Assembly (NCBI RefSeq): GCF_026571515.1
Contig: NW_026867118.1
Span: 124,001-188,000, forward strand
Direction of reading: 5' to 3'
Length of the DNA: 64,000 nt
DNA from: Ruditapes philippinarum
Taxonomy: Eukaryota
Of the stretch, positions 37,509 to 64,000 are shown piece after piece; position 1 is the first letter of the stretch; each line of letters begins with the position of its first letter. A program made the translations under genes and the position numbers. Under the pieces are notes generated by a model. That model was not told the DNA's origin. It saw only the letters and a program-made list of their open reading frames with translations, and did not search any database.

Positions 37509-39279
37509 TATTTATTTATTTATAAACAAAACTCATGGCCCTTAAGGGCATAAGAGTGAACAATCAACAAAACAAAAAATAATAATACAAACATGGCATG
37601 AAGTAAATAAGTAAATAAGGAAGATGACTTATTGAAATTTCAGCATTATAGCTTTGACAAAAATGGCTAGATTAAATAAAGTATTTCTGTTGTCGCTACA
37701 CATAAGAGCCTGAAAATTTAAAATACTAGGAAACCTTGAATAATAGTTACTGATATACCTGTGTCTTTCATGATTAAAATAAGTACATTTAAAAATATAA
37801 TGAAATTCATCACCTATTTCTTGCTGATTACAAAGTGAGCATGTTCTATTTTCTCTTTCAATACCAAAATAGCGACCTTTCTCTATAGGAATATTAGAAT
37901 TGAGACATCTAAATTTACAGAGAGCAATTGCTAAATTTCTTGGTAAACATAGTAAATAATGTTCTAGTTTAAATTGAGTTTTATATATTCTATAGTTTAA
38001 ACACTTAGCAGAATCAAAAACATCACTATTCCATACTTGTAAAAACTGATCACGTAATCGTGATTTTATTACATATTTAAAATTATTAAAATTTGCAACA
38101 TTCTGAGTTATCCAAAAATCAGAACAACCAAGATTATTCAAAGTAGATTTTACTTTCTCGATCCACTGACAATGTAAAATACCCTTTTCATGAAGATTAT
38201 ACATAGTGCGGTACAAAGAAGCACATATTTTATCATTTTTACCATTAACTAATTTACTCCAAAAATTTAACATTCTGCAAGTAATATCATTTTCAATAGG
38301 AAATGCACCTAGTTCTCCCAAGACCATAACCGAAGGAGTTGACATCTTAAGTTTAAGTATATATTTATAAAATTTTCAATTGAAACTGAGAAATAATAGA
38401 ATTATTTTCAGATCCCCACACCTCCGACCCATACAATAATATTGGCTTAACCATACTATCAAACAACTGTAACTGAATATCAATTGGCAAACACAATTTC
38501 TTAATTTTAGTTAAAATACTAAACATAGCCTTCCTCGCTTGATCTGTCAAGTGCTTTTTTGTTTTATTAAATTTACCATTAAAGTTGAATATCACACCTA
38601 AATAACTAAAATCATCTACAGCTTCTAGAGGTGCATTATTGAAATAAAATACAGGCTTATTTCTTAATTTACCACGAGAAAATACAACAACTTTTGTCTT
38701 ATCGGTATTAACAGTCAAATGCCATAATTTACAATAATCAAGCATGCAGTTTAGTGCTGTTTGAAGGCCAGTTTGACTTTCCGCGAAAACAACTGTATCA
38801 TCAGCATAGAGTAATAAGTGCAACTTCAAGAATACATCAACTTCATCATTACTTAACTGTTCATTTATCTGGTCTGATAAAAACTGCAACCCTTCACAAT
38901 ATGTAGACATATAAGAAACCAAATCATTAAGGAAAATTGAAAACAAAATTGGAGAAAGATTTTCTCCCTGACGGACACCTAAACAGCTTACAATTGTATC
39001 TGACAATGAATTATTCACTTTAACACAATACTTAGCTTTGTCATAGATATTATGAATAACTTTAAGTATTTTCCCATCAATATTATGTGCTAACAATTTC
39101 CTCCAGAGAGCAGTACGGTTTATACTATCAAATGCTTTCTTGTAATCAATAAAAGAGCAATACAATCTCTTTTTCTTCGATAAGTAAATATCAATCAACA
39201 TTTTTAAGGAAAAAATATGATCCGTAGTTCCATAACCATTACGAAACCCTGCCTGTTACTCAATTAATAGGCCATAGTC
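37509..39279 (-). mobile_element. 5'-truncated, frameshifted non-LTR retrotransposon (RT plus C-terminal CCHC-type finger; RTE-X-like by inference)
   Basis: ORFs 39201-38365 (FIDYKKAFDS, GVRQGENLSPILF, LLYADD) and 38345-37629 (CSLC...IGDEFHYIFKC) are joined by a one-base frameshift in an A-run near 38370. The upstream QAGFR motif lies at ~39240-39260 and a (TAAA)n tail at ~37509-37523. Confidence 0.88.
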
Positions 39280-40572: not shown

Positions 40573-43500
40573 TTATTATTATTATTATTATTATTATTTA
40601 CCAAACTTATATAGCGCCCTTTTCATATACATGTTCAAAGGCGCTTTACAATGATATAAACTAATAACTAATTACAGCAGTACAATTTAAAAACTAAAAC
40701 AGCATTCACATAATAAATCTACGACATAATAAGAACAAGAATATGAGACAATCAATTAAAATGTGGTATTTACCGTTTTACAATGATATAAAAACTAATA
40801 ACTAATTACAGCAATACAATTTAAAATACTATAACAGCATTTACATAATAAATCTACGACATACTAAGAACAAGAATATGAAACAATCAATTAAAATGTG
40901 GTATTAACTTAGTCGTTTAGAATTAAAATAATTGAATATCGACAACATACGATAAAATATTCTAGCAAAATTTCTAAAACACCAAATTAGAAATAATGTA
41001 TTTTATAATCAACACCTTAATTATTTGTAACTGTGTTAAAAATATTAGCAGAATTAAAACAAATTGTAAAATTATGGTTGATATCACACAGTAGTCACAC
41101 AGTTTTCTAAAATCACTGTCTCAGATTATTCACGATAAAATATAGGCTTGTTTGAAATAGTGTGTTTTAAGTGCACGTTTAAAAGAACACAATGAGCTCG
41201 AGTCTCTCACACCAGACGGCAGATCGTTCCACAGTTTCGGAGCTGCATATTCAAATCGTCGGTCGCCAAAGGTTACAGTTTTACTCGTTGGTACCACTAA
41301 AGTAAGTGCTTTGTTCTGAGATCGTAGATTCCTTCGTGGTTTGTAAACACATAACATTTCTTCCATATATTCCGGCGATTTTCCATTTAAAGCTTTGTAG
41401 GTATGTGTTAAAATTTTAAACTGGATTCTGTATTGCACCGGAAGCCAATGTAATTCTTTAAGTACAGGTGTAATATGATCGTACCGTGAAGTTCTGGAGA
41501 TGATGCGGGCAGCTGTATTTTGAACAATCTGCAGTTTGTTTATTAATGTTTGAGGTACTCCATACAATAATGCATTGCAGTAATCTAGGCGCGAAATGAC
41601 CAATGAAGTGACAAGTTGTTTAGATGCATCAATTGTCAGATATTTTCGAATTCTTCCTATTTGTCTAAGCTGATCATAACATGATCTGCATACCGAATTG
41701 ATGTGATCTTCCATGTTCATGTTTGAATCAAAGATGGCACCTAAATTTCTAACATTGACCGATTTGTTTATTTTAGAGTCACCCACGGTTATCGATAGAT
41801 CTTCAATGTGTTTGGAGTTATACGGAGATGAGAACATGATGACTTCTGTTTTATCAGTATTTAGTTTAAGCATGTTTTCATTCATCCATGATATTATGTC
41901 TCGGAGACACGCTTGAATGCGTTGTAATGTTTCTTCCTTAGAAATGTCATCTAATGGTTTGAAAGATAGATACAGCTGTGAGTCATCGGCGTAGAGATGG
42001 TATTGCAGTCCGTGATCTTTGCAAATGGCACCAAGTGGTTTAGTGTACATAGTATAGAATTTTGGCCCTAAAACGGACCCCTGTGGAACACTAAAATTAA
42101 GTGTGACCGGCTTTGACAGCACACCGTTAATGTATACTGTCTGTTTTCTATCTTTAAGGTATGATGTTATCCACTCCAGTGGTTTTTCAGCAATTCCGAA
42201 AACATTTTCAAGTCTCTGTACTAAGGTTTTGTGATCTATTGTGTCGAAAGCTGCTGATAGATCTAGCATAACTAAGATTGTCACATTTCCATGGTCAAGG
42301 GATTTTAGTACATCATTTTGGACTTTGATAAGTGCAGTCTCTGTCGAATGGAACTTGCGATAGGCTGACTGATACTTTTCTTGAAATTGATTTGTTGTCA
42401 CATGTTCATCAATGCGAGAGCTTACTACTCTTTCAAGTGTTTTCGATACAAACGATAAATTTGAAACAGGTCGATAGTTTTTTAAAATGTTTTGATCCAA
42501 TGTTGGTTTTTTCAGAAGGGGTTTAACATAAGACCTTTTAAACTCTGCGGGAACATTTCCTGTACTGAGAGAGATGTTGATAATGTTAGAAAGAAATGGT
42601 AAAAGTTCATCAAGGCACGATTTTAATAGCCATGTTGGTATAGGATCCAGTTCACATGATTTATTTGAAGAACTATTTATTATTTTCTTAATTTCTTCTT
42701 TTGATGCTTTCTCAAAGCGAGTCAGACTATTTTCAACGCCCATCTGTTCCGTTTCCACGTCACCTGGGTTTAGAACTAATTTTGATTTTATTTCATCCCT
42801 GATGGTCTCTATTTTCTCAACAAAGAAATCACTGAACTCTTGTGGCAATTTATCAGTTTCTATGTTTGTGGGTAAAGATGTCTCAGTTGGACCATTCATT
42901 AGGTTATTGGTAATTTGAAACAATTGTTTTTGATCTCGACCACAGGATGTTACCTTATCAGAATAATGTTTTACTTTAGCCTCAACCAACATTTTATTTA
43001 CTTTTGCACATTGATTTCTATATATTTCGTGGTCTATAGTCAATTTAGATGATTGCCAATTTCTTTCTAACTTGCGCCGCATATGTTTTGCGTCATGTAG
43101 CTCCTGGGTATACCAAGCACAAGAAGGTCGTAACACTATTGTTTTAGTTTGAATTGGAGCGTGCTTTTCGAGCAAGGTGGAAAGAACATTCGTATATTCT
43201 CCTACAAGTTGTTCGAGATCGGTGTGTTCAAGATGTAAGAGTGTTGATGATTCAATATCACTCTTAAAGGAATCTATATCAATTGAGTTGAGTTTTCTAT
43301 ACGTCACTGACTTTCGGATAGGCGGAGGTTTTTCAGCAATGGTATTGAATATAATTGCATAATGATCTTTTGTCACTTTTCCAGATTTGTTGTCTGATAA
43401 ACCTGGATCAACAACCTTAATGTTCGAAATTAAGATGTCAGTGTCCCTAGTAATGACAACATCAAGTGTATGTCCAAGCACATGGGTTGGTTCTCGAACA

Positions 43501-44423
43501 TGTTGTACCATTCCACATGATTGTAGAATGCTTGTGAATTTGATTGTGTCAGGTTGAGTGGGGATATCCAGGTGGAAGTTCAGATCTCCTGTTATTATAA
43601 TGTTCTTATCAGTCACAGCAAATTGTGCTAGGAATTTTGCCCATTCTTCTAGAAATACACTAGTTTTTAATTCATTTCCTTTAGATGGGGGTGGTCGGTA
43701 AACAACAGCTAACCTCATTGAATAATTTTTGATTGTTATCTTGCAATCCAAATGTTCAAATGTTGAGTACTCACTATCATGAGTTGATGCTAGAACCTTA
43801 ACATTTATATTTGACTTATAAATCACGGCGACACCACCATAACCTCTCCCACCAGGGCGCGGGGCATGTTTTATCTGATACCCCTCTGGCAAAAGTTCAT
43901 TCAGACATACTTTGTCAACTGAAGTTCCAAGCCATGATTCGGTGATTGCAACCAAATCGAATTTGTAGGAAAGTATAAAATCACAAATGGCCAGAGTTTT
44001 ATTTTTAACTGATCTTGGGTTAATGCAACATACATTTAACTTTCTTTGGCCTTTAACTGCAGAAATAGGTTCGTACTGTATTGTGGTCAGTGTCTTAATT
44101 CTAATCTGATCATTGTCATTTTGTGGTATTGTATTATATCTATTTGTCAATTTTACTGTTGAAATTGCCTCTGGTAAGTATTGCAGGTTTGAAAAGTTTA
44201 CTCCATCATTGCTGTCCCATAATTATACATATATAAAATTTCACTTAAGTGTTGTTACATCCTTAATTACAACATACACTCAGGATCTTTAATATTTTAT
44301 AAACATTTCGATAGTTCGAGTGCGCGGAAACAAATTAGGAAAATCCGCCGAAGATAAATCAGTTTCGGTCAATATGATCACTTATAAATAAACTTGCTCT
44401 GTGTAAAAATACAAGTTAACGTT
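40573..44423 (-). mobile_element. Near-intact L2/CR1-group non-LTR retrotransposon with a single EN+RT ORF
   Basis: ORF 44150-41130 (1006 codons) has APE endonuclease motifs (NPRS, LVAITESWL, GDLNFH, HTLDVV, DH) and RT motifs (QSAYR, LDLSAAFDT, VPQGSVLGP, YADD). The 3' UTR ends in an L2-type stem-loop (GCGCC...GGCGC) and a (TAA)n tail at 40573-40600. Candidate TSD AAGAATAA at 40565-40572 and 44424-44431. Confidence 0.92.
41130..44150 (-). CDS. LINE ORF2: APE endonuclease plus reverse transcriptase
   Basis: Uninterrupted reading frame with complete EN and RT motif sets (see the element entry). The frame stays open to ~44223 but has no in-frame ATG before the EN domain. Confidence 0.9.
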   Translation of the reverse strand: MTNRYNTIPQNDNDQIRIKTLTTIQYEPISAVKGQRKLNVCCINPRSVKNKTLAICDFILSYKFDLVAITESWLGTSVDKVCLNELLPEGYQIKHAPRPGGRGYGGVAVIYKSNINVKVLASTHDSEYSTFEHLDCKITIKNYSMRLAVVYRPPPSKGNELKTSVFLEEWAKFLAQFAVTDKNIIITGDLNFHLDIPTQPDTIKFTSILQSCGMVQHVREPTHVLGHTLDVVITRDTDILISNIKVVDPGLSDNKSGKVTKDHYAIIFNTIAEKPPPIRKSVTYRKLNSIDIDSFKSDIESSTLLHLEHTDLEQLVGEYTNVLSTLLEKHAPIQTKTIVLRPSCAWYTQELHDAKHMRRKLERNWQSSKLTIDHEIYRNQCAKVNKMLVEAKVKHYSDKVTSCGRDQKQLFQITNNLMNGPTETSLPTNIETDKLPQEFSDFFVEKIETIRDEIKSKLVLNPGDVETEQMGVENSLTRFEKASKEEIKKIINSSSNKSCELDPIPTWLLKSCLDELLPFLSNIINISLSTGNVPAEFKRSYVKPLLKKPTLDQNILKNYRPVSNLSFVSKTLERVVSSRIDEHVTTNQFQEKYQSAYRKFHSTETALIKVQNDVLKSLDHGNVTILVMLDLSAAFDTIDHKTLVQRLENVFGIAEKPLEWITSYLKDRKQTVYINGVLSKPVTLNFSVPQGSVLGPKFYTMYTKPLGAICKDHGLQYHLYADDSQLYLSFKPLDDISKEETLQRIQACLRDIISWMNENMLKLNTDKTEVIMFSSPYNSKHIEDLSITVGDSKINKSVNVRNLGAIFDSNMNMEDHINSVCRSCYDQLRQIGRIRKYLTIDASKQLVTSLVISRLDYCNALLYGVPQTLINKLQIVQNTAARIISRTSRYDHITPVLKELHWLPVQYRIQFKILTHTYKALNGKSPEYMEEMLCVYKPRRNLRSQNKALTLVVPTSKTVTFGDRRFEYAAPKLWNDLPSGVRDSSSLCSFKRALKTHYFKQAYILS

Positions 44424-45193: not shown

Positions 45194-48100
45194 ATGAAAA
45201 TGGATTTATTCTTTTTATCTGTCCTGGTCACCGTATTTCAAGGTAAATATGTTCATTTGTTTTTCCTTCGTCTATTTTTTCGTTTAAGAATTAGAATTAT
45301 CATAGTTTTAGTTTTAGTTTTATCATACATAAGTTAACAAAATATAATGTTTAATCATCGAAATATTGATAAACTATATGGCTTCAAGAACAAGCTATGA
45401 TTGTATATTCGGACTTAGTAAAGACATAGGACTTTTACGACGTAATACTGAATTTTTTATGCTTAAATATGATTATAAAAATGGGTGAGGGATTAACGAA
45501 TAAAGTTTTTTTACATCAACATATCCATATCAACGTTTGTTTTTTTCTTTTAAAGAACTTTGAACTTCATTCGAACACGTGGGTGCATGTGATTTATGTT
45601 TTTTCCTTTGCGTCTTAATTTTTATGTTTGAATGTCTCCAACAATGACTTTCTTTATAAGATGACAAGTCAGTTTTAATATAAAACTTCCTTTTACAATG
45701 GGTCGTTCGTGACCAAGTGAGTAAGGTCGTTGGTCTTAATGCTGTTCTTCCCAACTCGCCAGTGTATGTGGATTCTTTTATGTGACCAAGCTATCCAGTA
45801 AGGTTGTCCTACTCAGGTGCTCGTTTGTGTCTCAAATAATGCACAAAAGGGCACCGAGGTCTTCCTCTACCAGTAAAGCTGTAAAGTCACCATATATGAC
45901 CTCAAATGCGATGTAAAACCCGATAAAAATGTCAAACATTGATACACAGAAAATATCTAAAGCATAATACACGTCATGTATCTGTACGTAAAAAGCCACT
46001 GCAGTTAAGACAATTGTATTTCCATGCCATTTCAGCTTCATGGTCCTTCTTTGTTTCAAAATCAACACTGCAATGGTCAAGGAATAGAGATGGATGCGAG
46101 ATAGCAACACCAACCATACAATATGGCCAGAAAGACCTTACCGTTGATATGAATGGACAAGCTATAGAACAAGAAGTCTGGGTCGGTTACTATCAACAAA
46201 CTGCCTTGTTTGAGTACATAGGTAAATTCAAGTAATTTTGTTTGAAATAACAAATATCTATGTACAATGTATAATTCTAAGCAATATTCGATATGAAATT
46301 ATACTTTTTTAACGTCATGGGTTCTTATGAAAATATGGGTCTTTTGATTTTGATAGCAATGTATATTCATAATTTTCCCTTCAATGTCAGGTATTTATGC
46401 CAACAAAGCCATACATTGTCCCGTCTATCGGCAATCTGTATAATGAAATTATAATAACGCAAATTGTTATTGACGACTAGTACATAAGAAAACCAAGCAG
46501 TTTTAGACTGTTTTCAAAGAACGGTGGGAAAATGTCGCACGAAAGTAAGATGACGTCAGCCGTTCAACGGCTACGTGAACGCGTGTAAAGTCATCATACA
46601 ATGCTGAAACGCATTAGAAAAATAGCCGGTCATATATGTAATATATATGTAAGATATTCTAATTTAATAGCTTAGAAATGAATAATTATCATGTTGTTTT
46701 TATCTAGGGTGCATGAGTTCAGATGACTTAGATATACAAATACCTAAAATACAACTCGGTGAACGGAATATCGGACGGTGCTACTCTGCTTGTTCCCACT
46801 CGCCTTTTATCGGGATACAGAAGAGTAAGGTAGAGCATTGTTTTAACGATAATCTTCATTCAATTTAGAATTTTTCTACAGCATTAAGACATTAGTTTTA
46901 CAAGTATGAATGTTAACAAGAGCCACCGCCTTTCTAAATTCAAAACATCGGAGGAAAAATATTGTAGCAAAGAATTCTTCAAGACAACATCATTTGGTTT
47001 GCAAAAAAGTATAATTACAATTAAAATTTCATACTTGACATTGACAGTCAATGTCATTTACACATTAAGGTTATACCTAAATTATTCATCATAGTGGTAT
47101 TGTTATAAGCGTTGTTTTGTCAAAATATGAATCAAACCTATCCATATAATTACTATTAAAGTTATGATATAAACATTTGAACAAGTCGGTCAAGGTCAGT
47201 TTAGTTTTAAGGTTAAACTTGAATTAAACAACATGTTCAGTTTTAATTTCAACAATAAGCTTTGTTTTGCCCAAGTATAAATTCAATCTATAAAAACATA
47301 TTTTGATTTCTATAACATTTGCAAACATTTGCATTAAGAAAAATATTTTCACCTTCGTGATCAAGATCATTTTAAGGTCAAGGCCCTGTTTGATTTATAC
47401 AATACATCTATTGTGTCAAATATGGCGTATATAGTTTATATTTTATTCGTAAATGAATTACAGTCATGTCAATTTAAACTAGATTAAATAATTTGGCCTT
47501 GATGGTCAAGGTCATTTAAAGCTTAAGGGCATATTTGAATAATTCAATATATCGGTTTGGTCATAGTGTTCTTCTGTCAAAGTATGAATCAAAGCTGTAT
47601 GACACTTTAGCATATTTCAACAATTTTACACTCGAGGTCATTTTTTATGATCAAGGGGAGACTATTTTATGATAATATAGACAAATGTGCCTAAAGCCAT
47701 TGGTCGGGTCTTGACAGCTGACCCCGAGTTTTAAACGTTTTTATCTTTTGTGAATGTGTTTATTTCAAATGCCTTCTGAAAGTAAAGAGGGCAGTGGTCT
47801 GCTTTATTGTGTTATCTCTAATGTTTTGTATATGCTTTTAGAATGTACATAACATGACTATGGTGCTTTGATATGTGAATACTAGAAGGTTCCTTGGTTT
47901 AACTAGCTGTAAATGAGTATCAATAGTCGGCTTATCAAAAACTATGTCTGTTAAAATACTCTTCTTTATAAAATATCTGTTACTAGGATATTTTATGAAT
48001 AGTGTCTAGATAAACTTTTTTTCGGCAGATTAGCAACGGTTATAATATATAAAGACCACAATGTTAAAATTATGTGACATAAATTGTATGCCTCTTGAAG

Positions 48101-51100
48101 AACCCTTTTAGAACAAGGAAGATGAACTATGATTTTTGTTTTACGGGTGGAGGAAAACCCCAGGGGCCTGTCTGAAGATACTTTCAGGCACGAACGGGTA
48201 CCTTAGTAGAACCACCGTAGTAACTTTACATGGGTATATTTAAAAGCTCTACAGCTTGCTTTACTTCTGTTTTTATCATGAAATGAAAGACACTGGGACC
48301 AACACATACGGGAAGCAACTGCCTAGTTGTTAATTTGTTAAAACAGATATTTTTTTGTTCTAGCCCCACTGAGGACATAACCATGTTGATGACACATGTA
48401 CTAGTAAGTTCTAGAAAGTAAGCCCGAAAGTAGTTTGTTTAAGATATCGGGTTTTATCTCAATGGGGCTTAGATAGATATTTTAACGTAGATTCAAACGA
48501 ATCAAAATCTATCATACAACTCCTTCCCGCTAAAATGACATTTGATTTGAAGTTTGTAGACTTTATTCTGATATCTACATGTACTAGCAAATCTGACAAT
48601 AATGTTTTATGGTTATCTATAGAAAACATTGGCCCTCCCAAATTTTGTAGAATAAAGGGGGTCTAGAAATTGACACCGTCCGTCTGTACGTTCGTCCGTC
48701 TGTCAAACTGTATGTCTGTCCGTCACATTTTCGTGGCCGGTCCATAACTGTTTCATCCATCAAGGGATTTTGATTATACTTTGCACAAATGTTCACAATA
48801 ATGAGACAATGTGACATTCGCCTAATCAACTACCTCCAAGGTCAATGTCGCATGTAGAGGTCAAAGCTTAACATGGTCTGTTATAGGGTAAATTTTGTGT
48901 CCGTTTCATAACTTTTTCATAGAGCAAGGGATTTTGAAATTACTTAGCACAAATGTTAACAATAATAAGACGATGTGTCATGCGCAACATCCGGACCCCT
49001 AACTCAAATGTCAAGCGCACACGGAGAGATTAAAGCTGCACATGGTTTATAATAGGGTATTTTTGTGTCCTATCAATATTGTTTTATCGACCAAGGGATT
49101 TTAAAATTACTTGGCACAAATGTTCACAATAATCGGACGACGTGTCACGCATAACAACCGGAATCCTACCTTCATGGTCAAGGTCATACTTAGGGATCAT
49201 CTTAACATTGTTAGTTAATATAGGGTATATTTTGTGTCAGGTCAATCTTTTTTTCCCCCAGTAATTAATAGATTTTAAAATACCTCGGCACAAATGTTTA
49301 CAATAATTACGGACCCGACACGAAACATACCCTGTAATAGACCAAACCCTGTTTTGATTTTCTATTTGTTACATTTTATGGCTTTGAAATAGTGATAACA
49401 ACTATATATACAAACGAAATTTGTTGAAACATACACAGGATTTATTTCATTCTATATCTTTAATGAATTTATTGTTGCATGTGCAGAGTAGCATTGATAA
49501 AGAGTTTGCTCTGAAAGTTCGGATCCATATCTCATTCTTTTGAAATAGCACAATTTTGTACTGCATGTAAAAAGGGGACGTAGGTCACTCTGTTACAAAT
49601 GCTTGTTTACAGTGTTATTGCATACCAGACATACCAAAGAAAAACATAAGACAACTTGGCTGCAATTATTGGTGTACTGACAGGTATAATGCTGCTTGTG
49701 GAGGACACACTTTCATTTCAGTGTACAGAATGTTATCTCACAACGGTACGTAAAGGATTACGTTTTGCCTTATGCTTTAACAAAATTCATTTTAACTTAA
49801 TTAGAACTTCAAACCACTTGCCCTTCACCGCTCTTGGATTGTATTGCGCCACGGTCTTTAGAGGAAGCTATCAAGATAGTTAAAGGTACATCTGTGGTTG
49901 TACTTAGGTGCCCGTTCGTGACTGAAATAATGCACGGAGGGTTTTCTACCACTAGTTAAGATGGAAAGACGTCATATGACCTATTCTGCGTGTGCTTTCA
50001 TCTAGTAAAATATAGTAAAGTTAACAAGCAAAGTAATTTAAGTCTATTGTTGATTGACTGTTTAGTCATGTTTTGTATCCGGGAAAAGTGATGGAGGAAG
50101 ATATCAGGTACCCCTTCATGACTCTCTTACGAGCGGACAACCAATCGCATTCTTTCGACCATATTCGTCAAACTTCGGATAAGAGCCTCAAACACAATAG
50201 TAAGAATACTGTATTTCGGTTTTACCTACGCTACACTGTCGGGTACTTGAAACGGTGCAGATTTTCCGTGATACGGTGCTTCCATCCAAGATCGAGGAAG
50301 GTAAACAACAAGAAGGTTCATATATATCATATGTCATATCATATGTAACATACATTGTGAACTTATTGATCTTATTGTTACATTACATGCAACTATTCTT
50401 CTTTTACAATATAAAACGGATTTGTCTAAATACATAGAAATAAAATGACACGTGCATTCTTGTTGTATACCTTCCTCCATCATGGATTGAAGCACCCTAT
50501 CACGGAAAATCTGCACCGTTTCAGGTACCCGACAATGCTCTAAGGAACTTAACATGTAAACCAATAGTAATTTATTGCTAGGAGTTAAATTTATTCCAAT
50601 ATATCGGGTAAAAGTCCAGCAAAAATAAGAAATTTAAAGGTATGAAAGTAAACAGTATATTATGTACAAACTTATTCTAATGGTTGTAGAAACGGAAAGT
50701 ATTAAATATATACATGTCGACATTAATTCAGATTAAGATACAATTGTACATCGGTGGGCATTTTCTAAATTGATTATGATTGTGATTGTCAGACATATTT
50801 TCAATCATAATTTTACCGAAATAGACTATATTTTCCTTTGGATTTCAAATATATATATACATTCGCTACACATCACCAACTATTACACCTCTGTTTTTGT
50901 TTACATATAAAAACCACGTAGTAAAACTACTTTCAATCCGTAATAATTCCGGGGTTATTATGAATAATAGCCGAGATGTACCGATTGGTGGACACATAAG
51001 CAGCACAATCGACCTTCCGGAAGCAAACAAGATAGCTTCCTCGCATGAAATAATATAAGTCTCTGGAGGGAGTCGAACCCACTAAGGCAAGGGACAAGTT

Positions 51101-54100
51101 GTTCTGTCAACAATTTGACATCTCTGCTGATGGCTTGAATAGAGACTGACAAAAAAGTTTTATTTTTGAAATTTAGATTGTCATTCATATAGATGTATAC
51201 ATGCAACTTCAACTTCATGTTTATGTCCTTATCGGTAGACTCTAGACATATTCCTGAAAAACAAGAGTACAAAAAAAGATGTCTCAGATTAGATATCGAC
51301 CAAACAGGAAATAAAACATATCAATGGAGACTTTGTTCCGACGAAATGTGGGTATTTTGTACGTCTGGTGAGTTTTGTTTATATTATAGCTATGATATTT
51401 TCCAGGTATATATGACTTACTGCACAATTTTAATATCATCTCAGCATTTAATAACGTTTAACTTAATAAACTTTAAAAGGCAATCTGATGTACGTAAATG
51501 GTTACAAAAGGAGCGACATGTTATAAGGGGAAAATTACAGCATGTATGTAAAGCTTTAACCCAACCTGCGTAAATGACCACGGGCGCAGCAATTTCTAAA
51601 CATCTTTATATAACGGATTTATAATACAGCAAGATAAATTTATTTAAGGGGAAACGAAAATAATTCACTTTATAAATTATCAACAACCGTGTATATAGTT
51701 AATACAAGTTTGCGTCATTAAAAAATTAGAATGAGAGGTCTTTTTCATCTTGATTGCTCAAATGTCGAGAAAAAAGGAATTGAAAGGTTGAATTGCATTT
51801 GCGAACAATTGCGGCTATTTCTGTCAGTCTCCGAATAAGTTCTTATAAGGAATAATCAAGTTAAAGGAGTAGCAAGTACACGGTTTACACAGCCATATAA
51901 CAGTGCTTGGTGTTATTGTAGCAATAAAGTGTTTACTGTGCATGGAAACAAGAAATAGTAAAACGATATTCAGAAAACAATTATCAATTTATACAGATGA
52001 AAAGATAAAAAACGGAATGAACCACTGTCCGTAGCGTAATGTAACATAAAAGATATTTCCCACCTGTTCTTTTACCGATTTTTTCTCCTCGATGTTATTT
52101 TGTCTTTTGAGTAGTATCGTGTTCTAGTCCGGTTGCAGCCGACAACTGTGGAGTGGATCTTTTGTTTTGGGTTTTACGTCACATCGACACAGTATAGGTC
52201 ATATCGCAGCGTTCCAGCTTTACTGGTGGACGAAGACCTCAGGCGCCCTTCCGTGCATTATTTCAGGCACGAACGGGCACCTGAGTAGAACCACCGACGT
52301 TCCGTAAGCTAGCTGAAAGAATCCAAAGTCCCTGTTGGGATTCGAACCAACAGCGATGAGGGGCAAGTGGTTTGAAGTCAACGACCTTAACCACTCGGCC
52401 ACGGACGCCCCATGGAGTGTATCTGATAACATCTCCAATAACCATCACGATTATCCAGTGAAAAGCGACGATAAAAACGTTCACTATTATAAAATGTTTT
52501 GACCCTGTTTACATGTACTGCTGCATTGTACGGATATGTTGAATGTCAGATGTACTGTTAAAATAGTAATGTTGTAAAAAACTTTATGTGTTTTTTTTAG
52601 ATTTTAACCAATCAGTCAAAATTTGTTATAAAAAAAAAAGTTGGAGGAATGCAGCGTCACTGTGTTTTCAAACACATGGTTATCCGATTGGATATGAAAA
52701 CGTACGGAATGTGATTTTCGTGGCCAAATACGGCTGGGCAGGGATCGTGTGGAGCGATGTAATTTTCAACGATAATGGTATTTTTTTCCATAAAATAATG
52801 TTTTCAGAAGATTGGAACGATTTTTGTAAACAACTACGTAAAACAAGAAAAAAGTTTCAAAATCCGAATTCCACACTGAAAAGCTCTAAATCATTTTGGT
52901 TTAGATTTCTGGATAAAAGAGTCTCCCAAAATCAAATACATGCAATTAAAGGTTTTCTTATATTATTAATACGTTTATGCGTAAATAACTAATACATGAA
53001 TACATTCATGTGTAAATCACCAATGACCAATTAAGAAAACGCATTTGTTGATTTTTTATCTGTTTATTATCAGTAGTTACTTCTTTTACTTGAAAGAGAA
53101 ATTAAATATAATCTAAATTATGCGATTCAGCAATTTGATTTTGTTTACTCATTTTAGATTTAGAAAACTCGAAAACTTTGTTGGACATCAGTTATGGGTA
53201 TTTGAAATATGTTAGTCCTTACGGATATGTTTTACATTTTTCAAAAGAAGACACAGGAAAATATATTCTCTGCAATGGTAAGATTATTTTATTTATATTT
53301 ATAAGTGTATTATTCGATTAGGTCAATTACAAAATATGTACAGGGCAAATTTTAATCATGCAATTGTAATGCGATCTTTCATTATGAAAACAAAAACAAA
53401 AGCAAAACAAACATAAAACCGAAAGAGAACTTGCAAATAATTTAGCGAACACTTTCATGCCGGTAAATGCAGTTTATTATAGTGCAAATAAACTTCTCGA
53501 TTTTTCATTGGTCGAAACGTCCTTTTTATCATCATTGAATCTACGATTTATCAATTCAAGAGACCCTTTTGTCTCCTTACTTAAATAGCAAATAGCGGAC
53601 ATTCGTTGTTTCAATTTTTAAATCACCGTATCTTTTTGTCAGTCATTTTGCGATAATTACAAGTTTGATGATTGTTGCTCACTTTAAACATACTTTGTAA
53701 CAAAAAAAAAAACACTTATTTTTGTACACGTACGATTATATATAATCACGAGGATGCACGATTTCGTTGATTTTGACATGCTTAAACATCTCTATTCAAA
53801 ACCTTTCTAACGTTATTAACACGAGCCATCAGCTTAAAACAGTTTTAAACTACAAGAAATCGCAGTTTTAATAGAGTAAGTCGATGACTATTGTTGTAAA
53901 AATAAAATGGTCTGGAAACGGTTTGAGAATACATGTATTGGAGAAATAAGAGCTTAAGTAATGGTTCGCACAAAACTCCGTTATTCAGTAAAGCACATTT
54001 TTACTGATTTGGTGGAGGTAAATGTGTGTAATAAGGTATGAATGGGGAACAAAAATTCTGACTGGCACAACGGACCATGAGTTCCAAGAAGGTCATTTAT

Positions 54101-57100
54101 TGAATATTCTTCTCCCGGGAAGGCAAACGTGTTTCATGTCGGTATTACCGAGATTTAACGCTATAAAAGGTCATGAAATATTGTCAGAAACTACGCCATG
54201 TCGAGATTTAGGTATATTCGTCTATTTCATGATAACACCCCATCGCATACATCTAAGATTGTGAAGTCAATTTTGTAGTTTGAGAAAATTACCCCTTTAC
54301 CACACCAGCCATACTCTCAAGATCTAACCCCAAAAGACTCAAAAAGTTCTTATCATGTCGTCGACACAAGCCCCGACAGACCCTCAGTTAACTCATCAAT
54401 CAATGCCTCAGAGGTTTACCTAAATCAGCGTACAGTGACACATTTCATAAAAGGATTCAGAGCTATAAATTATGCACATTGTATCATAAACTGCGGATAT
54501 TTTTTTTTGAAAAAATGTCATTTTCATTCGGCAATTTTGGTCGCATGCTTTTTGAATAATATACAGCACATATTTAATATTTCATTATTATTGAAAATCA
54601 TTAAAATTCGTTAACGAGCATCACTTGAGAAATTCCTCTCAACAGGAATCATTGGAAATAACAATAATTGAGTTTTTAACAATTGATAAAATGAACTTGT
54701 TAAGATTTGAGCTTTGTTATGTATTACTGTACACCTAGCTCAGTTAATTATCAAGACAACTGGCGATGCTAACTATATAAACAACCGGAATTGTATTTCT
54801 ATAAACGATCAAAACTATATATTTCTGTTCATAAAACAGAAATGATTTTTTGGCTACTAAGTCTTTTCTTCATGTAACCGGTGCGTCAATAAAACGTTTC
54901 TTTGGTTCAGTGGTTTTAAGCATTGTATAACTTTGCATGTAAACTTTATTATTGCAGTCTCTTGTTCCGTTTCTTGTCAAATATGTTTAACGTCTTTTCA
55001 CAGATACATCCGTGAGAACAGAAACAACAAAATTGACAACTATCGCTCGTGATACTTCGAGTACAAAACGTACGCATGTAACCTGTGTGTGATTTATGCA
55101 TATATCTGTTCCGAGAAATTAATTTTAAATTTGATTATTAATCAATAATAATTTTAGGAAATTTAAGAAACTTATTAATTTCAAGCAATTATTATAATCT
55201 CATTTATAGATATCAATCTAACTTACGGAAAAAGTAATATTTATTAACAGTTATAAAACAGTAAAACAAGCTAAATTGTTTCATTATAAACAACCGCAAT
55301 GGTATTTGTATTCACAACATGATTGGTTTTGTATATATAACCCAAATGTGTTTTTGTCTGAATTATCAAAACGATATCTATTCATATGACAGGAATGTTT
55401 TTGTAACTAATAAAGTCTTTCCTTCATGTAATCAGTGCGTCAGTAAATCGTTCATTTGGCTCAGTGGTTTAGAGCGCTTCATTAGATTGCGTTTAATTTT
55501 CATTGTACTAGTCTTGAGTTTCGTTTTAAGCCAATAATGTTCAACATCTTTTCACAGATACGCCTGTAGAAAAAGAAACAACACAATTGACAACTATCAC
55601 AAGTGATGATAACTCTTCGCCTACAAAACATACTCATATAACCAGTATATGATTTATGCATTTATCCGTTATTATTATTTAAGAAAGTTATAATAATTGA
55701 TATATTTTGAAGATTAAATAACCTTATTGATTTCAAGCAATCATTATAACCTCATTTAACGGGATCGACCTATCTAACAGAGTAAGAAAATATTATAACA
55801 GGTATTTAACAGTATATCAATTGTTCTGTGATAGGCATTGTCATTAATATAATATTTTGTGCAAGTATATGACTGTATTAATACTGATGTTCGGATATAT
55901 ACCATGTCTAAACTTATTGGTGTTTACAATGATTACAGCAACGACAACAGAACGACTTTCATCAACATCTTGGTCAAACACACCAAATACACACGTCTGT
56001 TTCGTTGGCTGACGAGATAAGAAAGTCACACAATGACTCATCAACCAAAGGTAAAGGACAAATCAAAATCGATTTAGTGCCTTTGTTTCATTTTCACAAT
56101 GGTTCATGTGAGTGTGTAAAAGCATTCTCAGTGACTTGGATTGATATTTTAATAAGCAAGAATCAAATATTAGCAATACAAAAGAGAGAAAGAAAAAAAT
56201 GGGGTGTGTAAAATTTTGAGCTGATCAAGTGGTGGTTGAGTATAAGAAAGAAGCCATTGTAAATGTGTAAACACTTACAAACCTAAATTCATTCTACATG
56301 TATTACTGAATCTTTTTCTTTAGCAGTATTTCTTGGTTTACAGGCATTACTTGCCTTTCTAGCGTCGATCTTTAGCGTTATTATTAACTTAAATCTCTAT
56401 GAATAAAGACCGATACATGTTTATTTTCAGATACTGACATACCTGTCATTGTAGGCGTATCAGTTTCAGCTATCCTGGTTGTCGTTATAATTGTGATCAT
56501 TCTGATCCTAGTCAAACGGTATGTTTCCTCATTTGAAAGGAATTTAGATACTATAAGCCTCCTTAGATGTTTTCATAGTGCAACGTAACTTACTTCTTGG
56601 TGAAGTTTACAAAAATATCAATGTTTCTTTTCCAAAACAGGATTGAAGTAAATCTTTTTCACAAGTATGTGTTGATATTTATGTATTTATGAAATATGCT
56701 TTATTTTATTTATCTGCTTTAGCATTTAAATAAAGTAATTCTAATTGGTTTTACATTTGTGATTTATTCTTCTTTTCTGCTGATACATTTTTATAGGAAG
56801 AAAATACGTTGTTGTACTGAAGGAAAGCAGTTAACTGAGGTGGCTGATCAAAAAAATTCAAAGACTAAAAATCCTATTTCACACGTAAACAATTCTTACG
56901 AGCTTGTTGATGCTGAATATATAGATACAGCTATCAAAACAACATCTGATTTGTGTGATGGCACTTACAACATGCCCGAACAAGAAGCAGATGAAGTAAA
57001 CACAAACGTAACAACATACGACATCGCTGGTACCGACAGACAAACATTAAAACAGGAACACGACAATATATATAATAAACTGCAATCTGAAAGCAGTCCC

Positions 57101-57319
57101 ATATATGATCACACCAATGATAAATCTAAAACTGGAATTCAAGCGTCTGATGATACATACAACACAACGAAAGATATATCAGCGAATTCTGGATTTAAAC
57201 TTGGCGGCAATCATGCAGTTGGTATGAATACCATTGAAGAAAGCCCTTACAATCACACTAACTCTGATCCGTTTGAACAAAAACAAGTAGACAATGTCTA
57301 CAACACTGCTAGCTTTTAG
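45194..57319 (+). CDS. Uncharacterised type I membrane receptor, paralogue 1: signal peptide, split C-type-lectin-like domain with nested WSC domain, second lectin-like domain, Thr-rich stalk, TM helix, Tyr-rich tail (~564 aa)
   Basis: Exons 45194-45242 (MKMDLFFLSVLVTVFQ, signal peptide), 46036-46221, 46708-46829, 49613-49745, 51239-51367, 52601-52777, 53158-53277, 55004-55084 (or 55069), 55558-55644, [55939-56050, frameshifted], 56431-56518 (IPVIVGVSVSAILVVVIIVIILILVKR, TM), 56797-57319. In frame when the bracketed exon is skipped. WSC signature YIGC...C...C...FIG.Q...CYC...C...C...CGG...SVY. Confidence 0.82.
48657..49320 (+). mobile_element. Degenerate HINE-like element with an internal tandem array
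   Basis: (GTCC/GTCT)n microsatellite followed by about four repeats containing CAAGGGATTTT...TACTTGGCACAAATGTT. Confidence 0.65.
50237..50534. mobile_element. Foldback MITE with ~78-bp imperfect inverted arms
   Basis: TGTCGGGTACTTGAAACGGTGCAGATTTTCCGTGATA... (50237-50314) mirrors ...TATCACGGAAAATCTGCACCGTTTCAGGTACCCGACA (50457-50534). Confidence 0.75.
52161..52412 (-). mobile_element. Essentially full-length tRNA-derived SINE (Meta-core-like)
   Basis: Box A TGGCCGAGTGG, box B GGTTCGAATCC, core GGTGGTTCTACTCAGGTGCCCGTTCGTGCCTGAAATAATGCACGG, and a 12-bp TSD TGGAGTG(G/T)ATCT. Degenerate copies lie at ~7400-7590, 12240-12500, 25660-25935, 45700-45920, 48140-48220, 49810-49990 and 50960-51130. 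Confidence 0.88.
54265..54510 (+). pseudogene. Decayed mariner transposase C-terminal fragment
   Basis: Translates to EKITPLPHQPYSQDLTPKD (compare the mariner HPPYSPDLAP.D motif), then after a frameshift LKKFLSCRR...QCLRGLPKSAYSDTF.KRIQ, with a stop. Confidence 0.7.
54780..55810 (+). repeat. ~550-bp tandem duplication, each copy carrying a Thr-rich exon
   Basis: 54780-55260 aligns with 55330-55810 (AAGTCTTT.CTTCATGTAA.C.GTGCGTCA..., TCTTTTCACAG|ATAC..., TTTCAAGCAAT). Confidence 0.85.
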
Positions 57320-58739: not shown

Positions 58740-59760
58740 TTACAAAAGACACGGGTTTGTGATAAAAACCACAGGCGAAACACCACGTGCACAACAAAAT
58801 TCCTGTAGAGTTTCATGACCCTAGTTAAAATACTTTTGAGCTATGTGTGACACAAGTTGGAGATTACAAACGTTTAGTAAGTCAAGGGCAAAACATTTGA
58901 CAAAACAAAATAAATCCACAAGTTAAACCCTAGGTGCATAGACTGAGCAACATTCCTGTAAAGTTTCATGACCCTAGGTCGAATAAGTTTTGAGCTACAT
59001 GCGACGCAAATTGAAATTTGCAAATTTTTACTTTGTCAAGGGCAATAACTCTGACAAAATACTTAACTCTACAAAAACTAAATAAATCCACACGAACATA
59101 CCCGGGTGCACATCTCAATCTAATTAAAATCAGCTTTAAATAACGCTCCGCTTTTAGATCTAACAGTGACCAAATACAAAGTCATTTCTGGTAACCTTTA
59201 ACACAGCCATTCATCGGCGAGCTTTCATAATTTTGAAAGCGATGCAGTTTCTAATTTTAACCCTGGGAAAGACAATACTGAATAGGTTATTTTCACGATT
59301 TCAAGAACAAACATGGCGTTGTCATCAAGTTAACTGGCAAAAATAAAATCTTTGCTCATTAAAAATTGACTCTATTTTTTCAAGTTAATTTGTTAAAAAT
59401 TACTTCAAACATTTTTTTTTCAACAAAAATCAACAATTTGTTAAATTTCCACGGATAACCGAATTTTGATAATTCGTCTACTGGCTATCTGTCAAAACCG
59501 ATTTGATTGCATTGCTAAAAATAGCTTTCTCGGGAAATCCGAATTATAAAGAAGGCGAACCATATTCGGTCGTCATTAGATGCACAGGAAATAAATAAGT
59601 AGATCTGAACTTTAGTCACATTGGTGCACAACTACACATGCTGGGCAACATCCATGTAATGGTTCATGACTCTAGGTCAAATACTTTTTGAGCTACGTGC
59701 GACACAAAATGAGAACGGATGGACGGACAGACGGACAAGGGTCAATCTAAATGCCCCCTT
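58740..59760 (-). mobile_element. HINE-like element interrupted by a ~510-bp insertion
   Basis: Repeated GTTTCATGACCCTAGGTC units, (GGAC)n at 59716-59738 and an ATGCCCCC end. The insertion 59113-59622 is flanked by GGTGCACA. Confidence 0.6.
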
Positions 59761-59998
59761 ATAGTGAGAGCACACAAATCGTCTTCCGTATATCAGTGTG
59801 TAATGACGGGAAATGACTAACGTCCGGCTAAGTTTGTGAATTAAGCAATAAGTGTTACTAAAGACATATACTACATACATGTATATCCTATAGTTCGTGC
59901 ACAGCTACACGTACTTACCATTAAATTTCCTTATGTATGCACCAAGTTTGAATAATTTCATTTTCGGAAAAGACTCTTATAGAAGAATAAAAGCATAC

Positions 59999-62900
59999 AT
60001 GTGGAGAATGAAACTGGATATACTCATTCTTTGTACTATAGAGATCATATTTCAAGGTAAACTTCTTTATTATTTGTTGTATGTTGTTTTGTCATATAAA
60101 TAACTTATAATTGATACTTAAATTAAATATATTATAATTGGTACTTAAATAATGTTTTAATAAAGACTTTGAAACGTTAATTTCTAATAACAGAGTTAGT
60201 TTAAGTTGAACCCATATAACCCGGATGGCTTCCGACATAAGAATTTATTCTGTTTAAACCTGTTTAAAGTTGGTATCCCGGTTACATAAATTTTCTGTAA
60301 TAAAATAACACATGAACCATAGGTATGATATTTAACTAAAATGGAAGGGATGGGGAATGTACAGTTTACAAATTTGGAAAGTTTTTCTTTTGTGTCAACA
60401 TGTCGATATTGCTATTGATAATTTTGAAAGAACCGTGTTGGAATTTCTTTTATCGCGTGAATCAATCTGCAAATTGTCTTTGCAATTTAAGTTTATGATG
60501 AAATATCTTAAAATAATATATGATAAACATAATCAACAGGGAAAGGCGGCGTTCAATGAACGCAACCCCCGCATGACTCTTCTTTTACAAGTTGACAAAT
60601 TGAATGACGCTTAACAAATGTCAAGTATTTGTTAAAACAATTGTCAGAGGACCACCAACAGAATAAGGTTATTCAATTGAATTAAAAATATCCTTTGAGT
60701 AATTTCATGTTTGTTTTAGAGTCATGGTGTTATTATGTTTCGAATACAACATTTACATTGACAAAGAAGAGCAATAATTGTGAGATAGCTACACCTGCTG
60801 TACAATACGGTAACCAAAAGCTTACAGTTGATATGAATGGACATTCTATAAAGAAAGAGGTCTGGGTTTGTTACTATCAACAAACTGCTTTGTTTGAGTA
60901 TATTGGTAAATTTTACGTTTTTATTGTTAAAATAAACAATTTTCTATGGAGCTTAAAAATCTGAAACTACATTTTACCTATGCGGGAAAGGTGGTATTAT
61001 GCTTTGTAAAACATGACCCAAACATATATTTATAATTTTCTTAGACTTTCGAGTTGTTCAGAAAAAATATGTTAAACTTGATGGGGAATCGGACGATAAA
61101 GTGGATTGCCTCCGAAATTTTATTCATAACCAAATGTAAAATTTTTATTATTTATATAATGTTTGTTTTCTGAAGTATGCAAGAAAACATGTTTTCTCTA
61201 TTTCAAATGTGCCGGTCACAACTGATATATGAATGCCTATGTTGTTGTTACATATAGGTTGCATGAGTTCGGAGGACTTACAAATACCCAAAATTCAACT
61301 CGGTACACCGAATATTGGACGATGTTATTCTGCTTGTTCCAACACGCCTTTTATCGGGATTCAGAGGAAAGAGGTATAGCATGATCGTTCACCTTATAAG
61401 CTTTAGCTGAGAGAACAGATGATACAGAGGTCTTTTCCACTGTAGATGTTTTGAATATGTTAATACCGTAACTATGACAACGGAATATGATGGCTCTTTT
61501 TACCGTGGCATATTTTATTAATAAGGAAATAAGTAGGAAATTGGAAATATGACATGTTAATTTTAAATAATAAATATTTTAACAGATCTTGTAAATTTTG
61601 ATGAGTATATATGAAAGCTGTTTAGATTTTGTTATTATACTGAGGGTTTTGAAATATTTAATCACTTATGAATTTATATACATTAACATGAAGTAAATCT
61701 ATTCTCTGTCTTTATAGTGTAAGCTATTTGGCTTCATCCTTTAATCACAATAAGATTTAGAAAGAAATATTAACTTTATATTTTAAACAAATCAAAATGT
61801 TCTCAGCAATATAGGCTAAACAATAACCATAAACCAGTTTTTAAAACAGACGGGTTGAAATATATTATGTTAAACTTAAGGTGGAACCCAACTAATAAAT
61901 ACCCCCGCTTTGAAGAGTATTCAATAGGCTTACTATAGTAATCAATTTTAACTGAGTGGCGTGGTTCCCCAGAGAGGGCAAAATTTGTTCTTTTTTCTTT
62001 TAACATTATTAAATTAATGGATCACTCAGATCCATTTTGGAAAGAATAAAGTGTTTAATTCAATTTATATAATAATTAAAGGTGTTAATTGGCTAAATAA
62101 TGCTTTATTTATTGACAGATATGGTACCTGATATTTTCAAGTCAAATGAAATATTAAATACTCGATAAAAGTACATTGAACCTACATACTTTTGAGAAAA
62201 TTAAGGGAAACTTTGATAATCCCCATATTTTGGTTATTTTTGAATTTGAATTAGGCTCTCTAAAAGAAAAATGGCTAAACAAGTGTATAAAGTGATGAGG
62301 TAGTGTAACATTTGTATACATATTTCAAATATTTTGAGCAAAATCAATTAATTTGCTCGGTAAAAGTACATTGAAAATTAAGGGAAACTTTGATTATCCC
62401 CATATTTTGGTTATTTTTGAATTTGAATTAGGCTCTCTAAGAGAAAAATGGCTAAACAAGTGTATAAAGTGATGAGGTAGTGTAACATTTGTATACATAT
62501 TTCAAATATTTTGAGAAAAATCAATTATTTTAATGTTAATTAAATGTTATTATTTGTTACTAAACACTGATCAGTAGGAAAATATTTTTCGTAAGGATGT
62601 TATTATAGATTCTTAAACTGAAAATTAACCCTTCTTATATCTAAAAAGTGCCCTTAACTAGTAATTCGTAGGTATATTTTGATTACATTTTGCACACCGG
62701 CGTTCTTTGTTGACTGTTTGGCAGTTCCTTATAGTGCCAATAACAAGGGTCATACAACAAGAAGTTTTGTTTTGTTTTTTGTTTTGCCTGCAGGATGCAA
62801 GCTGAATAATCATCGTCCGAACCCTCTTCCCCATGAAATAGCTTTTTTGTTTTAATTAAATTATTGCATCTATTATGTACTGAATTTTCTACCACATTCT

Positions 62901-64000
62901 AATATGTAAACTCTGGGACACATTGTTATTTACAGTGCTACTGCATATCAGACAAACCAGTTATAAGTAGTATCAGAAATCCAAACTGCAATGCTGGATG
63001 TTCTGTTTTTTATAACGCTGCTTGTGGCGGAGACAAGGTCATTTCACTGTACAGAATGCTACCTCACAACGGTAAATACAACATTTTTTATATTTCATAC
63101 ATACCATTCATGTTTTAAATGTTATTTATATACAAATGTATTTTTATAGATCTATAATTGTAAAAGTTTAGACAAGTGACACAAATAATTTAAGCTATCA
63201 TCATACACTAACAATAAATTTAGATTACATAATTTGTGCCAAAATACACAAAAAGTAGACATTTCTACGGAAGTAAATGGTTAATACATAGCGATAAAAA
63301 TAATATGATATTATAATTTACATATATTAAGTAAAGTTATACGGACAGCAAATTAGAATATATATTGATTTATAACATATGAAACATTTGCTGAGGAATT
63401 ATTTTTTGATCACATTGAGGCGTTGAAATTTAAGTATATTTATCATTATTTTCGGAAGAATCTAAACATATTCCTGCTGCAAAACAGGACAACAAAACTT
63501 GTCTCAAAATAGGTATCGACAAAAGTAAAGGAAACAAAACGTATGAATGGAAATATTGTTCCGAACAAATGCCGGCACTTTGCACATCTGGTGAGTGTTT
63601 ACTAATTACAGAGTTTTTACTGCAGTATGCTTTATATGAAAGCCGTTCAATGTATAAAACTGTACAAAGAAAATAAATATAATAAATAAACATAAATGTT
63701 TATCCATGTTAAATTTCACAAATGCATCTTTATTACTACAATATACACATTTAGAATTCTTACTTTTTCATTCGAATTAATGAGATTTCGTTATATGTTT
63801 TGGGATAACTCGTTTATATTACAATATATAATGCTCACAGTTGCTGCAAAGCCGAATCAATCGAGTTATTGTGGGAATATGAATAATGTTTTCTATAATA
63901 TATATAGCTAGCAAATATTTCACATTTCTTCTTTCCTGCTTTTGTAAGATTCAGACCGATCAGTACAAATAAATATGAAACAGAAAAGCTGGATGAATGC
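59999..64000 (+). CDS. Tandem paralogue 2 of the WSC/lectin-like receptor (partial, runs off the window end)
   Basis: Exons 59999-60056, 60720-60905, 61258-61373, 62936-63071, 63459-63590, 63949->64000. Same exon order and phases as paralogue 1, with shared peptides (CEIATP, LTVDMNG, YYQQTALFEYIGCMSS, NIGRCYSACS, YNAACGG, YRML.HN). Confidence 0.85.
62166..62528. repeat. ~180-bp direct duplication
   Basis: AAATTAAGGGAAACTTTGAT...ATTTCAAATATTTTGAG occurs at ~62198 and ~62375. Confidence 0.9.

Follow-up and report, generated by a model that had tools for sequence, protein, structure and literature searches.

Receptors of the C-type-lectin-like (CTL) fold and proteins with a WSC domain are both well described, and so are several ways in which CTL domains exchange parts. 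Group V-type CTL receptors without a Ca2+ site, such as CD72, LLT1, KLRG1 and CLEC5A (PF00059), are type II membrane proteins. In yeast Wsc1 (7PZ2) a WSC domain, a Ser/Thr stalk, a single transmembrane helix and a tail follow one another in series, and in Kremen1 (5FWS) the WSC domain stands in series with a kringle and a CUB domain. The polycystin-1 ectodomain holds WSC and CTL in one membrane protein, as separate serial domains. Swapping is a known property of the CTL fold: snake-venom CTL heterodimers and carbohydrate-recognition domain 4 (CRD-4) of the mannose receptor swap a loop, and BDCA2 reportedly forms a domain-swapped dimer. In collagen IV NC1, passages of PMC3779223 describe a segment swap between tandem subdomains. 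Here we analyse LOC132734900, a multi-exon gene of the clam Ruditapes philippinarum, in a 64,000-nucleotide stretch of DNA (the window; contig NW_026867118.1, positions 124,001 to 188,000). Its product carries a WSC domain inside the first of two CTL-like repeats, and we lean towards the explanation that these repeats form a swapped, two-lobed pedestal for a WSC head that receives a ligand, likely a glycan, and signals through a tyrosine-bearing tail.

The clam protein combines features of these systems in an arrangement of its own. It shares with the group V-type receptors the fold of the lobes (structural matches at Z 7.8-8.7), the W..A...C and WIG-like motifs, the four-cysteine pattern and the lack of sugar motifs; unlike them, it is type I, its two repeats are predicted to be swapped, its long loop is replaced by an 85-residue WSC domain and it gives no match to Pfam Lectin_C. 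The eight-cysteine WSC domain resembles those of Wsc1 and Kremen1 (Z 12.2 and 10.3) and retains the aromatics of cluster 1, and the order of WSC, Ser/Thr stalk, single transmembrane helix and tail is that of Wsc1. In contrast to both, the clam WSC interrupts a CTL repeat and is neither free nor serial with kringle and CUB, and cluster 2 is mostly lost; its position inside the repeat likewise sets it apart from polycystin-1. Compared with the swaps known from collagen IV NC1, BDCA2, venom proteins and CRD-4, a whole C-terminal half is predicted to be exchanged within one chain, with one lobe circularly permuted and a foreign domain on the crossover.

The exons at 46036..51367 belong to LOC132734900, whose introns are all GT-AG and whose frame is open. 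The spliced product of exons 1 to 7 is 100% identical to residues 1-305 of the RefSeq isoform P0006. Exon 1 (45194..45242, +), which matches RefSeq P0001, encodes the signal peptide (residues 1-16). The N-terminal half of CTL repeat 1 (N1), with beta1, alpha1, C37 (at 46095) and the WIG-like W65 (at 46179), lies in exon 2 (46036..46221, +), a phase 1-1 exon whose last residues are the first four of the WSC domain. That domain continues through exon 3 (46708..46829, +; C80, C103, C107) and exon 4 (49613..49745, +; C120, C122, C136, C140, C148, Y157). The C-terminal half of repeat 1 (C1; C178, C196 and C204, the last at 51358) is exon 5 (51239..51367, +), and a second CTL-like repeat without an insert is formed by exon 6 (N2; 52601..52777, +; W221, C228 at 52663, W252) and exon 7 (C2; 53158..53277, +; C304 at 53271). 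The ectodomain thus reads N1, WSC, C1, N2, C2, and all of its modules are phase 1-1. An earlier note on this DNA had confined a WSC domain within a split CTL fold to 46036..51367; the CTL and WSC parts do lie there, but the span omits exons 6-7, and this second repeat alters the predicted fold. Splice joints were sought in assembled contigs from four RNA-type runs of four studies, their RNA nature being the search tool's guess; some contigs carry several letters that differ from the window and may represent alleles or close paralogues. All four runs contain the joints e1-e2, e2-e3, e3-e4 and e4-e5, the last exactly at the predicted acceptor in three and as a variant with 8 letters between in the fourth, while e5-e6 was found in two runs and e6-e7 in three. 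Raw RNA reads on 45-64 kb were swamped by intronic repeats, showed no exon joint among the 15 listed and were usable only for indels in the stalk.

Pfam reports WSC (PF01822) as the sole match on the protein (residues 77-150, model positions 1-82, 29.4 bits against a cutoff of 27.8), just as the earlier note had foreseen for a standard domain scan; run on single exons, it gives a weak WSC match for exon 4 and nothing else. This match over the whole model and the presence of all eight cysteines (C80, 103, 107, 120, 122, 136, 140 and 148), together with the CGG motif, bear out the view that the WSC domain is complete. A single-sequence search of solved relatives returned yeast Wsc1 as its sole significant match, and in the predicted model the domain adopts the PAN/apple-type fold, matching 7pz2 (Wsc1) at Z 12.2, root-mean-square deviation (rmsd) 3.9 and 93 aligned residues, with a Foldseek probability of 1.0 (E 4.4e-3).

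The flanking halves also resemble known domains. The CTL motifs named in the earlier note are in place (W30, C37 and W65-V-G in exon 2; C178, W193, C196 and C204 in exon 5), and the family consensus carries the set of alpha1 W..A...C, a WIG-like beta2 and a terminal C..W..C...C pattern. A profile of 81 family sequences matches solved CTL domains separately through its exon-2 part (CLEC5A, E 0.0016) and its exon-5 part (1wk1, E 0.001), which upholds the assignment of exon 2 as a first and exon 5 as a second CTL half; exons 6-7 match solved CTL domains on their own as well. The lectin match after removal of the WSC domain, proposed earlier as a check, was obtained: the WSC-deleted profile of one clade aligns over 89 columns with the second, uninterrupted repeat of the other (Prob 95%, score 44), and the best of 30 column shuffles scores 15.3. 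Judged by sequence, the CTL resemblance is beyond chance. N1+C1 and N1+C2 profiles score alike (44.0 vs 45.5), so this comparison is neutral as to which halves pair. Exons 6 and 2 are homologous, each ending in a phase-1 intron 14 residues past the beta2 Trp. At E<=0.1, Pfam finds WSC in 49 and Lectin_C in 8 of the 81 family members, the latter above its cutoff in P0106, P0116, P0122, P0140, P0071 and P0152.

Our model of the ectodomain suggests that the halves of the two repeats are exchanged. AlphaFold was run on the full ectodomain of P0006 with an alignment of 81 sequences, giving a mean predicted local distance difference test score (pLDDT) of 88.4 and a predicted template modelling score (pTM) of 0.85 (pLDDT 86.2-88.4 across five models). 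The best of the five was compared with 48,161 solved chains, and among the 50 matches listed, 46 are CTL folds (Z 6.8-8.7) and four are WSC domains; collagen IV NC1 is not among them. Every one of the 46 CTL matches spans from model residue 20 or earlier to residue 306 or later. The selectins, which have no strand ahead of beta1, are instructive here: residue 1 of E- and L-selectin falls on W19 and residue 120 on residue 307, three residues past C304. E-selectin aligns over 93 residues (Z 8.1, rmsd 3.6), and the best CTL match, CD72, over 92 (Z 8.7, rmsd 3.9). With exon 2 at the start and exon 7 at the end of all 46 matches, the first strand of the former would pair with the last strand of the latter, leaving exon 5 to pair with exon 6. 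The exon 5/exon 6 lobe would then be circularly permuted, its two parts linked by a short hairpin, where the model has a strand (200-206), a five-residue turn, a second strand (212-219) and then the helix with C228, and two long strands, 64-82 and 249-263, could cross between the lobes. The corresponding disulfides would be C37-C304, C204-C228 and C178-C196. Taking the family evidence below into account, we consider the exchange (exon 2 with 7, exon 5 with 6) quite probable. The structure is therefore probably stranger than the single split domain of the earlier note, in which exons 2 and 5 close on each other through C37-C204. The CTL matches come from the wide aligner; Foldseek on the full model returned nothing at E<=0.001 and no CTL chain among its listed rows. 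In a structure search of the ESM Atlas with P0139, where all feature scores are at or below 0.81 and serve as leads, a mollusc cluster of 60 members aligned over 248 residues (TM-score 0.60) and chordate clusters with multiple CTL domains over 202-210 residues in one superposition (TM-score 0.44-0.52), which hints that other proteins may also be predicted to have a two-lobe geometry of this kind.

The loss of cysteines across the family points to the same pairing. A first count used 84 aligned rows, 50 of them with all four halves filled; 43 had both C37 and C304, 3 had neither and 4 were discordant, and C204 was present in all five rows without C37. From these 50 we removed P0020 (no C2), P0091 (N-terminus cut), P0096 (misaligned) and a near-duplicate P0016 unit, and brought in P0088, which carries the terminal cysteine in its longer isoform. 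Among the resulting 47 complete ectodomains C37 is lost in four and C304 in three, all three among those four (Fisher p 2.5e-4); in the fourth, P0025, the cysteine is displaced by five residues. By contrast with the C37-C204 bond that the earlier note had offered as its own test, cysteine loss ties C37 to C304: C178, C196, C204 and C228 are never lost among the 47, the four members without C37 included. On a quick tree the co-losses fall in two clear independent lineages and one ambiguous one. Mutual information ranks C37-C304 second and C37-C204 352nd, a result that we do not count apart from the co-loss test. Family variants add to this. P0063, P0073 and P0096 have no recognisable exon-5 sequence and lack most of exon 6, yet they keep C37 and a C304-type cysteine, while the N1-WSC-C1 unit alone occurs in none of the 72 single-WSC rows with a transmembrane helix. 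In P0016 (Mercenaria) and in P0071, which has near-canonical CTL sequences and no transmembrane helix, the complete N-WSC-C-N-C unit occurs twice in tandem. P0045 and P0115, which are without the exon-5 half, have a new cysteine directly ahead of the beta2 Trp of N2. It is as if C228 had gained a substitute for C204, which fits the swapped pairing.

Several points weigh against the exchange of halves, and the simplest reading of the sequence is a different one, in which exons 2 and 5 close into one CTL domain through C37-C204, the WSC domain is looped out and exons 6-7 form an independent second CTL domain. That a WSC-deleted profile matches a whole CTL repeat, and that distant members show an unbroken Lectin_C domain in exons 6-7, agree with such closure. 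AlphaFold also produces it: for P0002, a natural paralogue model without exons 6-7, exon 2 folds with exon 5, selectin residues 1-120 fall on model residues 17-205, and 46 non-WSC matches, almost all CTL domains, run from residue 19 or earlier to residues 204-214 (best Z 8.2). Both pairings are thus sterically possible. As to the swapped model itself, its CTL Z scores (6.8-8.7) are middling on the search tool's own scale, only the top model of five entered the search, and the disulfides and inner lobe were deduced from alignment ranges and secondary structure. The cysteine signal amounts to two or three events, in a family that was also the input to the model, and a WSC cysteine pair is missing as well from two of the three co-loss members. 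An internal control is mixed: C140 and C148, a known disulfide pair according to passages of PMC9024836, disappear together as expected, but five members have lost C136 and kept its partner C80. Mutual information over the whole alignment, which is distorted by invariant columns, gives no block-level enrichment for either pairing, and a further homologue search with a 43-sequence alignment yielded 3 matches, of which 1 was new, so the alignment is too shallow for contact prediction. The short C204-W221 linker was considered as proof of the hairpin and rejected, since P0016 has an equally short Cys-to-Trp link between its units. What turns us from closure, which we regard as unlikely, is that the full-length model picks the other pairing in 46 of 46 CTL matches and that C204 persists where C37 is gone, that membrane-bound members never carry the exon 2-WSC-exon 5 unit alone, and that the P0002 model is the less confident one (pTM 0.69, no first helix, and blocks of residues 21-70 at pLDDT 70-85 vs 85-96 in the full model). 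A further alternative, that exon skipping or folding conditions toggle between closed and swapped forms and that skipping yields functional variants, strikes us as highly improbable. Phase 1-1 modules throughout, the fact that both forms can be modelled, isoforms without exon 5 (P0163) or exon 7 (P0010, P0088) and models without exon 6 (P0050, P0054, P0060) would suit it. Such single-exon skips leave an unpaired half in either topology, however; gene models without only exon 5, 6 or 7 are noisy, a point that also touches the family evidence above, and may reflect splicing noise or prediction errors, and no skip joint for exons 1-7 appears among the 15 of 35 contig joints listed.

Returning to the swapped arrangement, the question is what such a pedestal would carry. 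As far as sequence can tell, the protein belongs to both the WSC family and the CTL-like fold superfamily and is not a Ca2+-dependent lectin. EPN or QPD together with WND are the motifs of Ca2+ site 2, and none of EPN, QPD and WND is found in the window protein; among the 47 members, scattered matches occur in 7 and no EPN/QPD+WND pair does. Since these motifs are absent and the sugar loop is gone, the scaffold is probably a structural pedestal. The notion of one glycan-binding module grafted inside another, put forward in the earlier note, therefore finds no support and is the weaker account, the insert having replaced the Ca2+/sugar loop. In the mechanism that we propose, the two CTL repeats would swap halves to make one rigid two-lobed pedestal, the pedestal would present the WSC domain as ligand-binding head, the head would bind a microbial or particle-surface glycan, and clustering of the receptor would lead to phosphotyrosine signalling through the tail. 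Tandem gene clusters, divergence, a variable stalk and tyrosine-rich tails fit a recognition receptor. For the ligand itself, we give about even weight to binding of a glycan by the WSC domain, appreciably less to binding of a protein by that domain, and little to binding at the scaffold surface. Passages of PMC9024836 cite binding of beta-glucan by the fungal WSC protein SiWsc3, and the three cluster 1 aromatics of Wsc1 are retained in 41, 36 and 46 of the 47 members. Against a glycan, cluster 1 adjoins the scaffold and may be buried, and cluster 2 is mostly lost, with an aromatic at the I115 position in 0/47 and at I154 in 4/47. A protein ligand is a close rival to a glycan. In the same passages the Kremen1 WSC domain contacts Dkk1, so that WSC domains bind proteins too, and Wsc1 is without an apparent glycan pocket (PMC9024836). 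Kremen ranks near the top of the structural matches (Z 10.3), and the best CTL matches, CD72, LLT1 and KLRG1, are non-sugar-binding domains of the natural killer (NK) type. The complete alternative, a swapped pedestal that binds a self or pathogen protein through WSC or CTL surfaces in the manner of Kremen or Ca2+-independent NK-type CTL receptors, nevertheless seems doubtful to us given the conserved cluster 1 and the beta-glucan binding of fungal WSC proteins; microbial recognition would suit the tandem expansion and fast divergence, which are indifferent between glycan and protein.

The WSC-in-CTL architecture defines an expanded bivalve family. Searched with a profile, 1.84 billion representatives yielded 178 matches at E<=0.001, of which 150 were listed; 81 proteins were hand-picked for matching beyond WSC and aligned, and organism names were looked up for 20 matches. 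Those with a name belong to Ruditapes, Mercenaria, Mactra, Mya, Dreissena, Pecten, Saccostrea and Tegillarca. Clams, scallops, oysters and ark shells are thus all represented, and with them both main bivalve groups. Its genes form tandem clusters and diverge strongly. All source names seen are uncharacterised, hypothetical or WSC-containing: RefSeq entries for bivalves called 'uncharacterized protein' and the UniRef entry 'WSC domain-containing protein' of Tegillarca granosa (P0171) belong to the same family, and the names mention WSC at most and a split CTL never. Because standard scans label members as WSC-only or not at all, the family is likely missing from counts of the lectin repertoire of farmed clams, scallops and oysters. 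In the full-text literature, with most subscription journals and supplements outside coverage, we found no description of a WSC domain inside a CTL repeat, nor of any foreign domain at the CTL long-loop position on an intramolecularly swapped tandem pair such as the one predicted here. The passages of PMC4581086 at hand merely list a bivalve WSC protein among gill transcripts, and those of PMC8242945 name WSC in a figure key for a sponge. The family is a tangible candidate for receptors that recognise microbial surfaces in bivalves and signal. A bolder version, in which these are bivalve and possibly pan-mollusc innate receptors, each a tyrosine-signalling glucan sensor with a beta-glucan-binding WSC put by exon shuffling in place of the Ca2+/sugar loop and a natively swapped, half-permuted pedestal, is unlikely to hold in full. 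If true, it would also make the exchange a natural, stable intramolecular swap of tandem domains, one that may extend to other multi-CTL proteins with short linkers.

The family also suggests how the insertion arose. In the divergent members P0152 and P0071 an intact WxWxD-G/N/K motif directly precedes the WSC domain, which places the insert where the long loop begins and sharpens the earlier placement of WSC in the long-loop region. In true C-type lectins this loop holds the Ca2+ sites, according to passages of PMC4090677. Exons 3 and 4 together make a phase 1-1 WSC cassette. We infer that such a cassette entered the intron splitting the first repeat of a two-repeat CTL gene at the long loop, and that the joint between the beta2 Trp and the WSC domain was then shortened and stiffened, a clean case of domain insertion through a symmetric exon cassette. 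Counted from the beta2 Trp, the first WSC cysteine comes 16 residues on in 33/33 members of one clade and 17 in 13/14 of the other, the constancy that a rigid joint would show. Of the first clade, which includes the window gene, 1/33 members keep the inner disulfide of C2, which the window gene has lost, against 13/14 of the second. We rejected the idea that the first WSC strand is ancestrally the CTL WxWxDG motif, since P0071 and P0152 have both in series; the overlap of the two, seen in 6/14 members of one clade, looks like later shortening.

Downstream of exon 7 the gene continues into a stalk, a membrane helix and a tail, and its product is predicted to be a type I membrane receptor-like protein. 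Two alternatively spliced Thr-rich stalk exons, supported by splice sites and by mapping of RefSeq isoforms, lie at 55004..55084 (+; isoform P0007) and 55558..55644 (+). A third stalk exon of 112 nucleotides (55939..56050, +) is out of frame in this assembly, with a stop at codon 330 if it is included, which accounts for the truncation of RefSeq models. In two RNA runs the reads have a net gain of 5 bases in this exon (X23: +9 and -4; X24: +5), which keeps the frame into the transmembrane exon; the discrepancy may reflect an assembly error, an allele or paralogue reads. Leaving the exon out likewise preserves the receptor frame. The transmembrane-helix exon (56431..56518, +) is in frame with exon 7, giving a product of 509 residues, and the paralogue models P0012 and P0013 join the same ectodomain to this helix; no exon 7-transmembrane joint was seen in the reads. 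A cytoplasmic-tail exon (56797..57319, +) encodes about 170 residues. Its 9 tyrosines include those of YELV and YNKL, and inspection by eye found no exact immunoreceptor tyrosine-based inhibitory motif and no paired activation motif. In the family, 40 of 47 members have a transmembrane helix, mostly with a tyrosine-rich tail.

A second copy, paralogue 2, lies in the region of LOC132734904 (60720..64000, +) and runs off the window. As the earlier note had claimed, it keeps the same layout, with exons 2 to 5 (e2 60720-60905, e3 61258-61373, e4 62936-63071 and e5 63459-63590) and the start of exon 6 (from 63949), all on the forward strand and without stops. Its exon 2 has no Trp before alpha1 and two extra cysteines, one in beta1 and one replacing the WIG glycine. 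Elsewhere in the window, intronic and intergenic repeats at about 52160-52412 and at 58950-60580 show very high read depth in the RNA runs, and we take the former to be a short interspersed nuclear element derived from a tRNA. Exons at 10043-16248 (-), 26043-26324 (-) and 34211-34750 (+) presumably encode ankyrin-repeat, MORN-repeat and PIH1-domain proteins, respectively. An open frame of 1030 codons at 41130-44222 (-) is presumably the endonuclease and reverse transcriptase of a long interspersed nuclear element, and further fragments resembling reverse transcriptase lie at 37629-39255.

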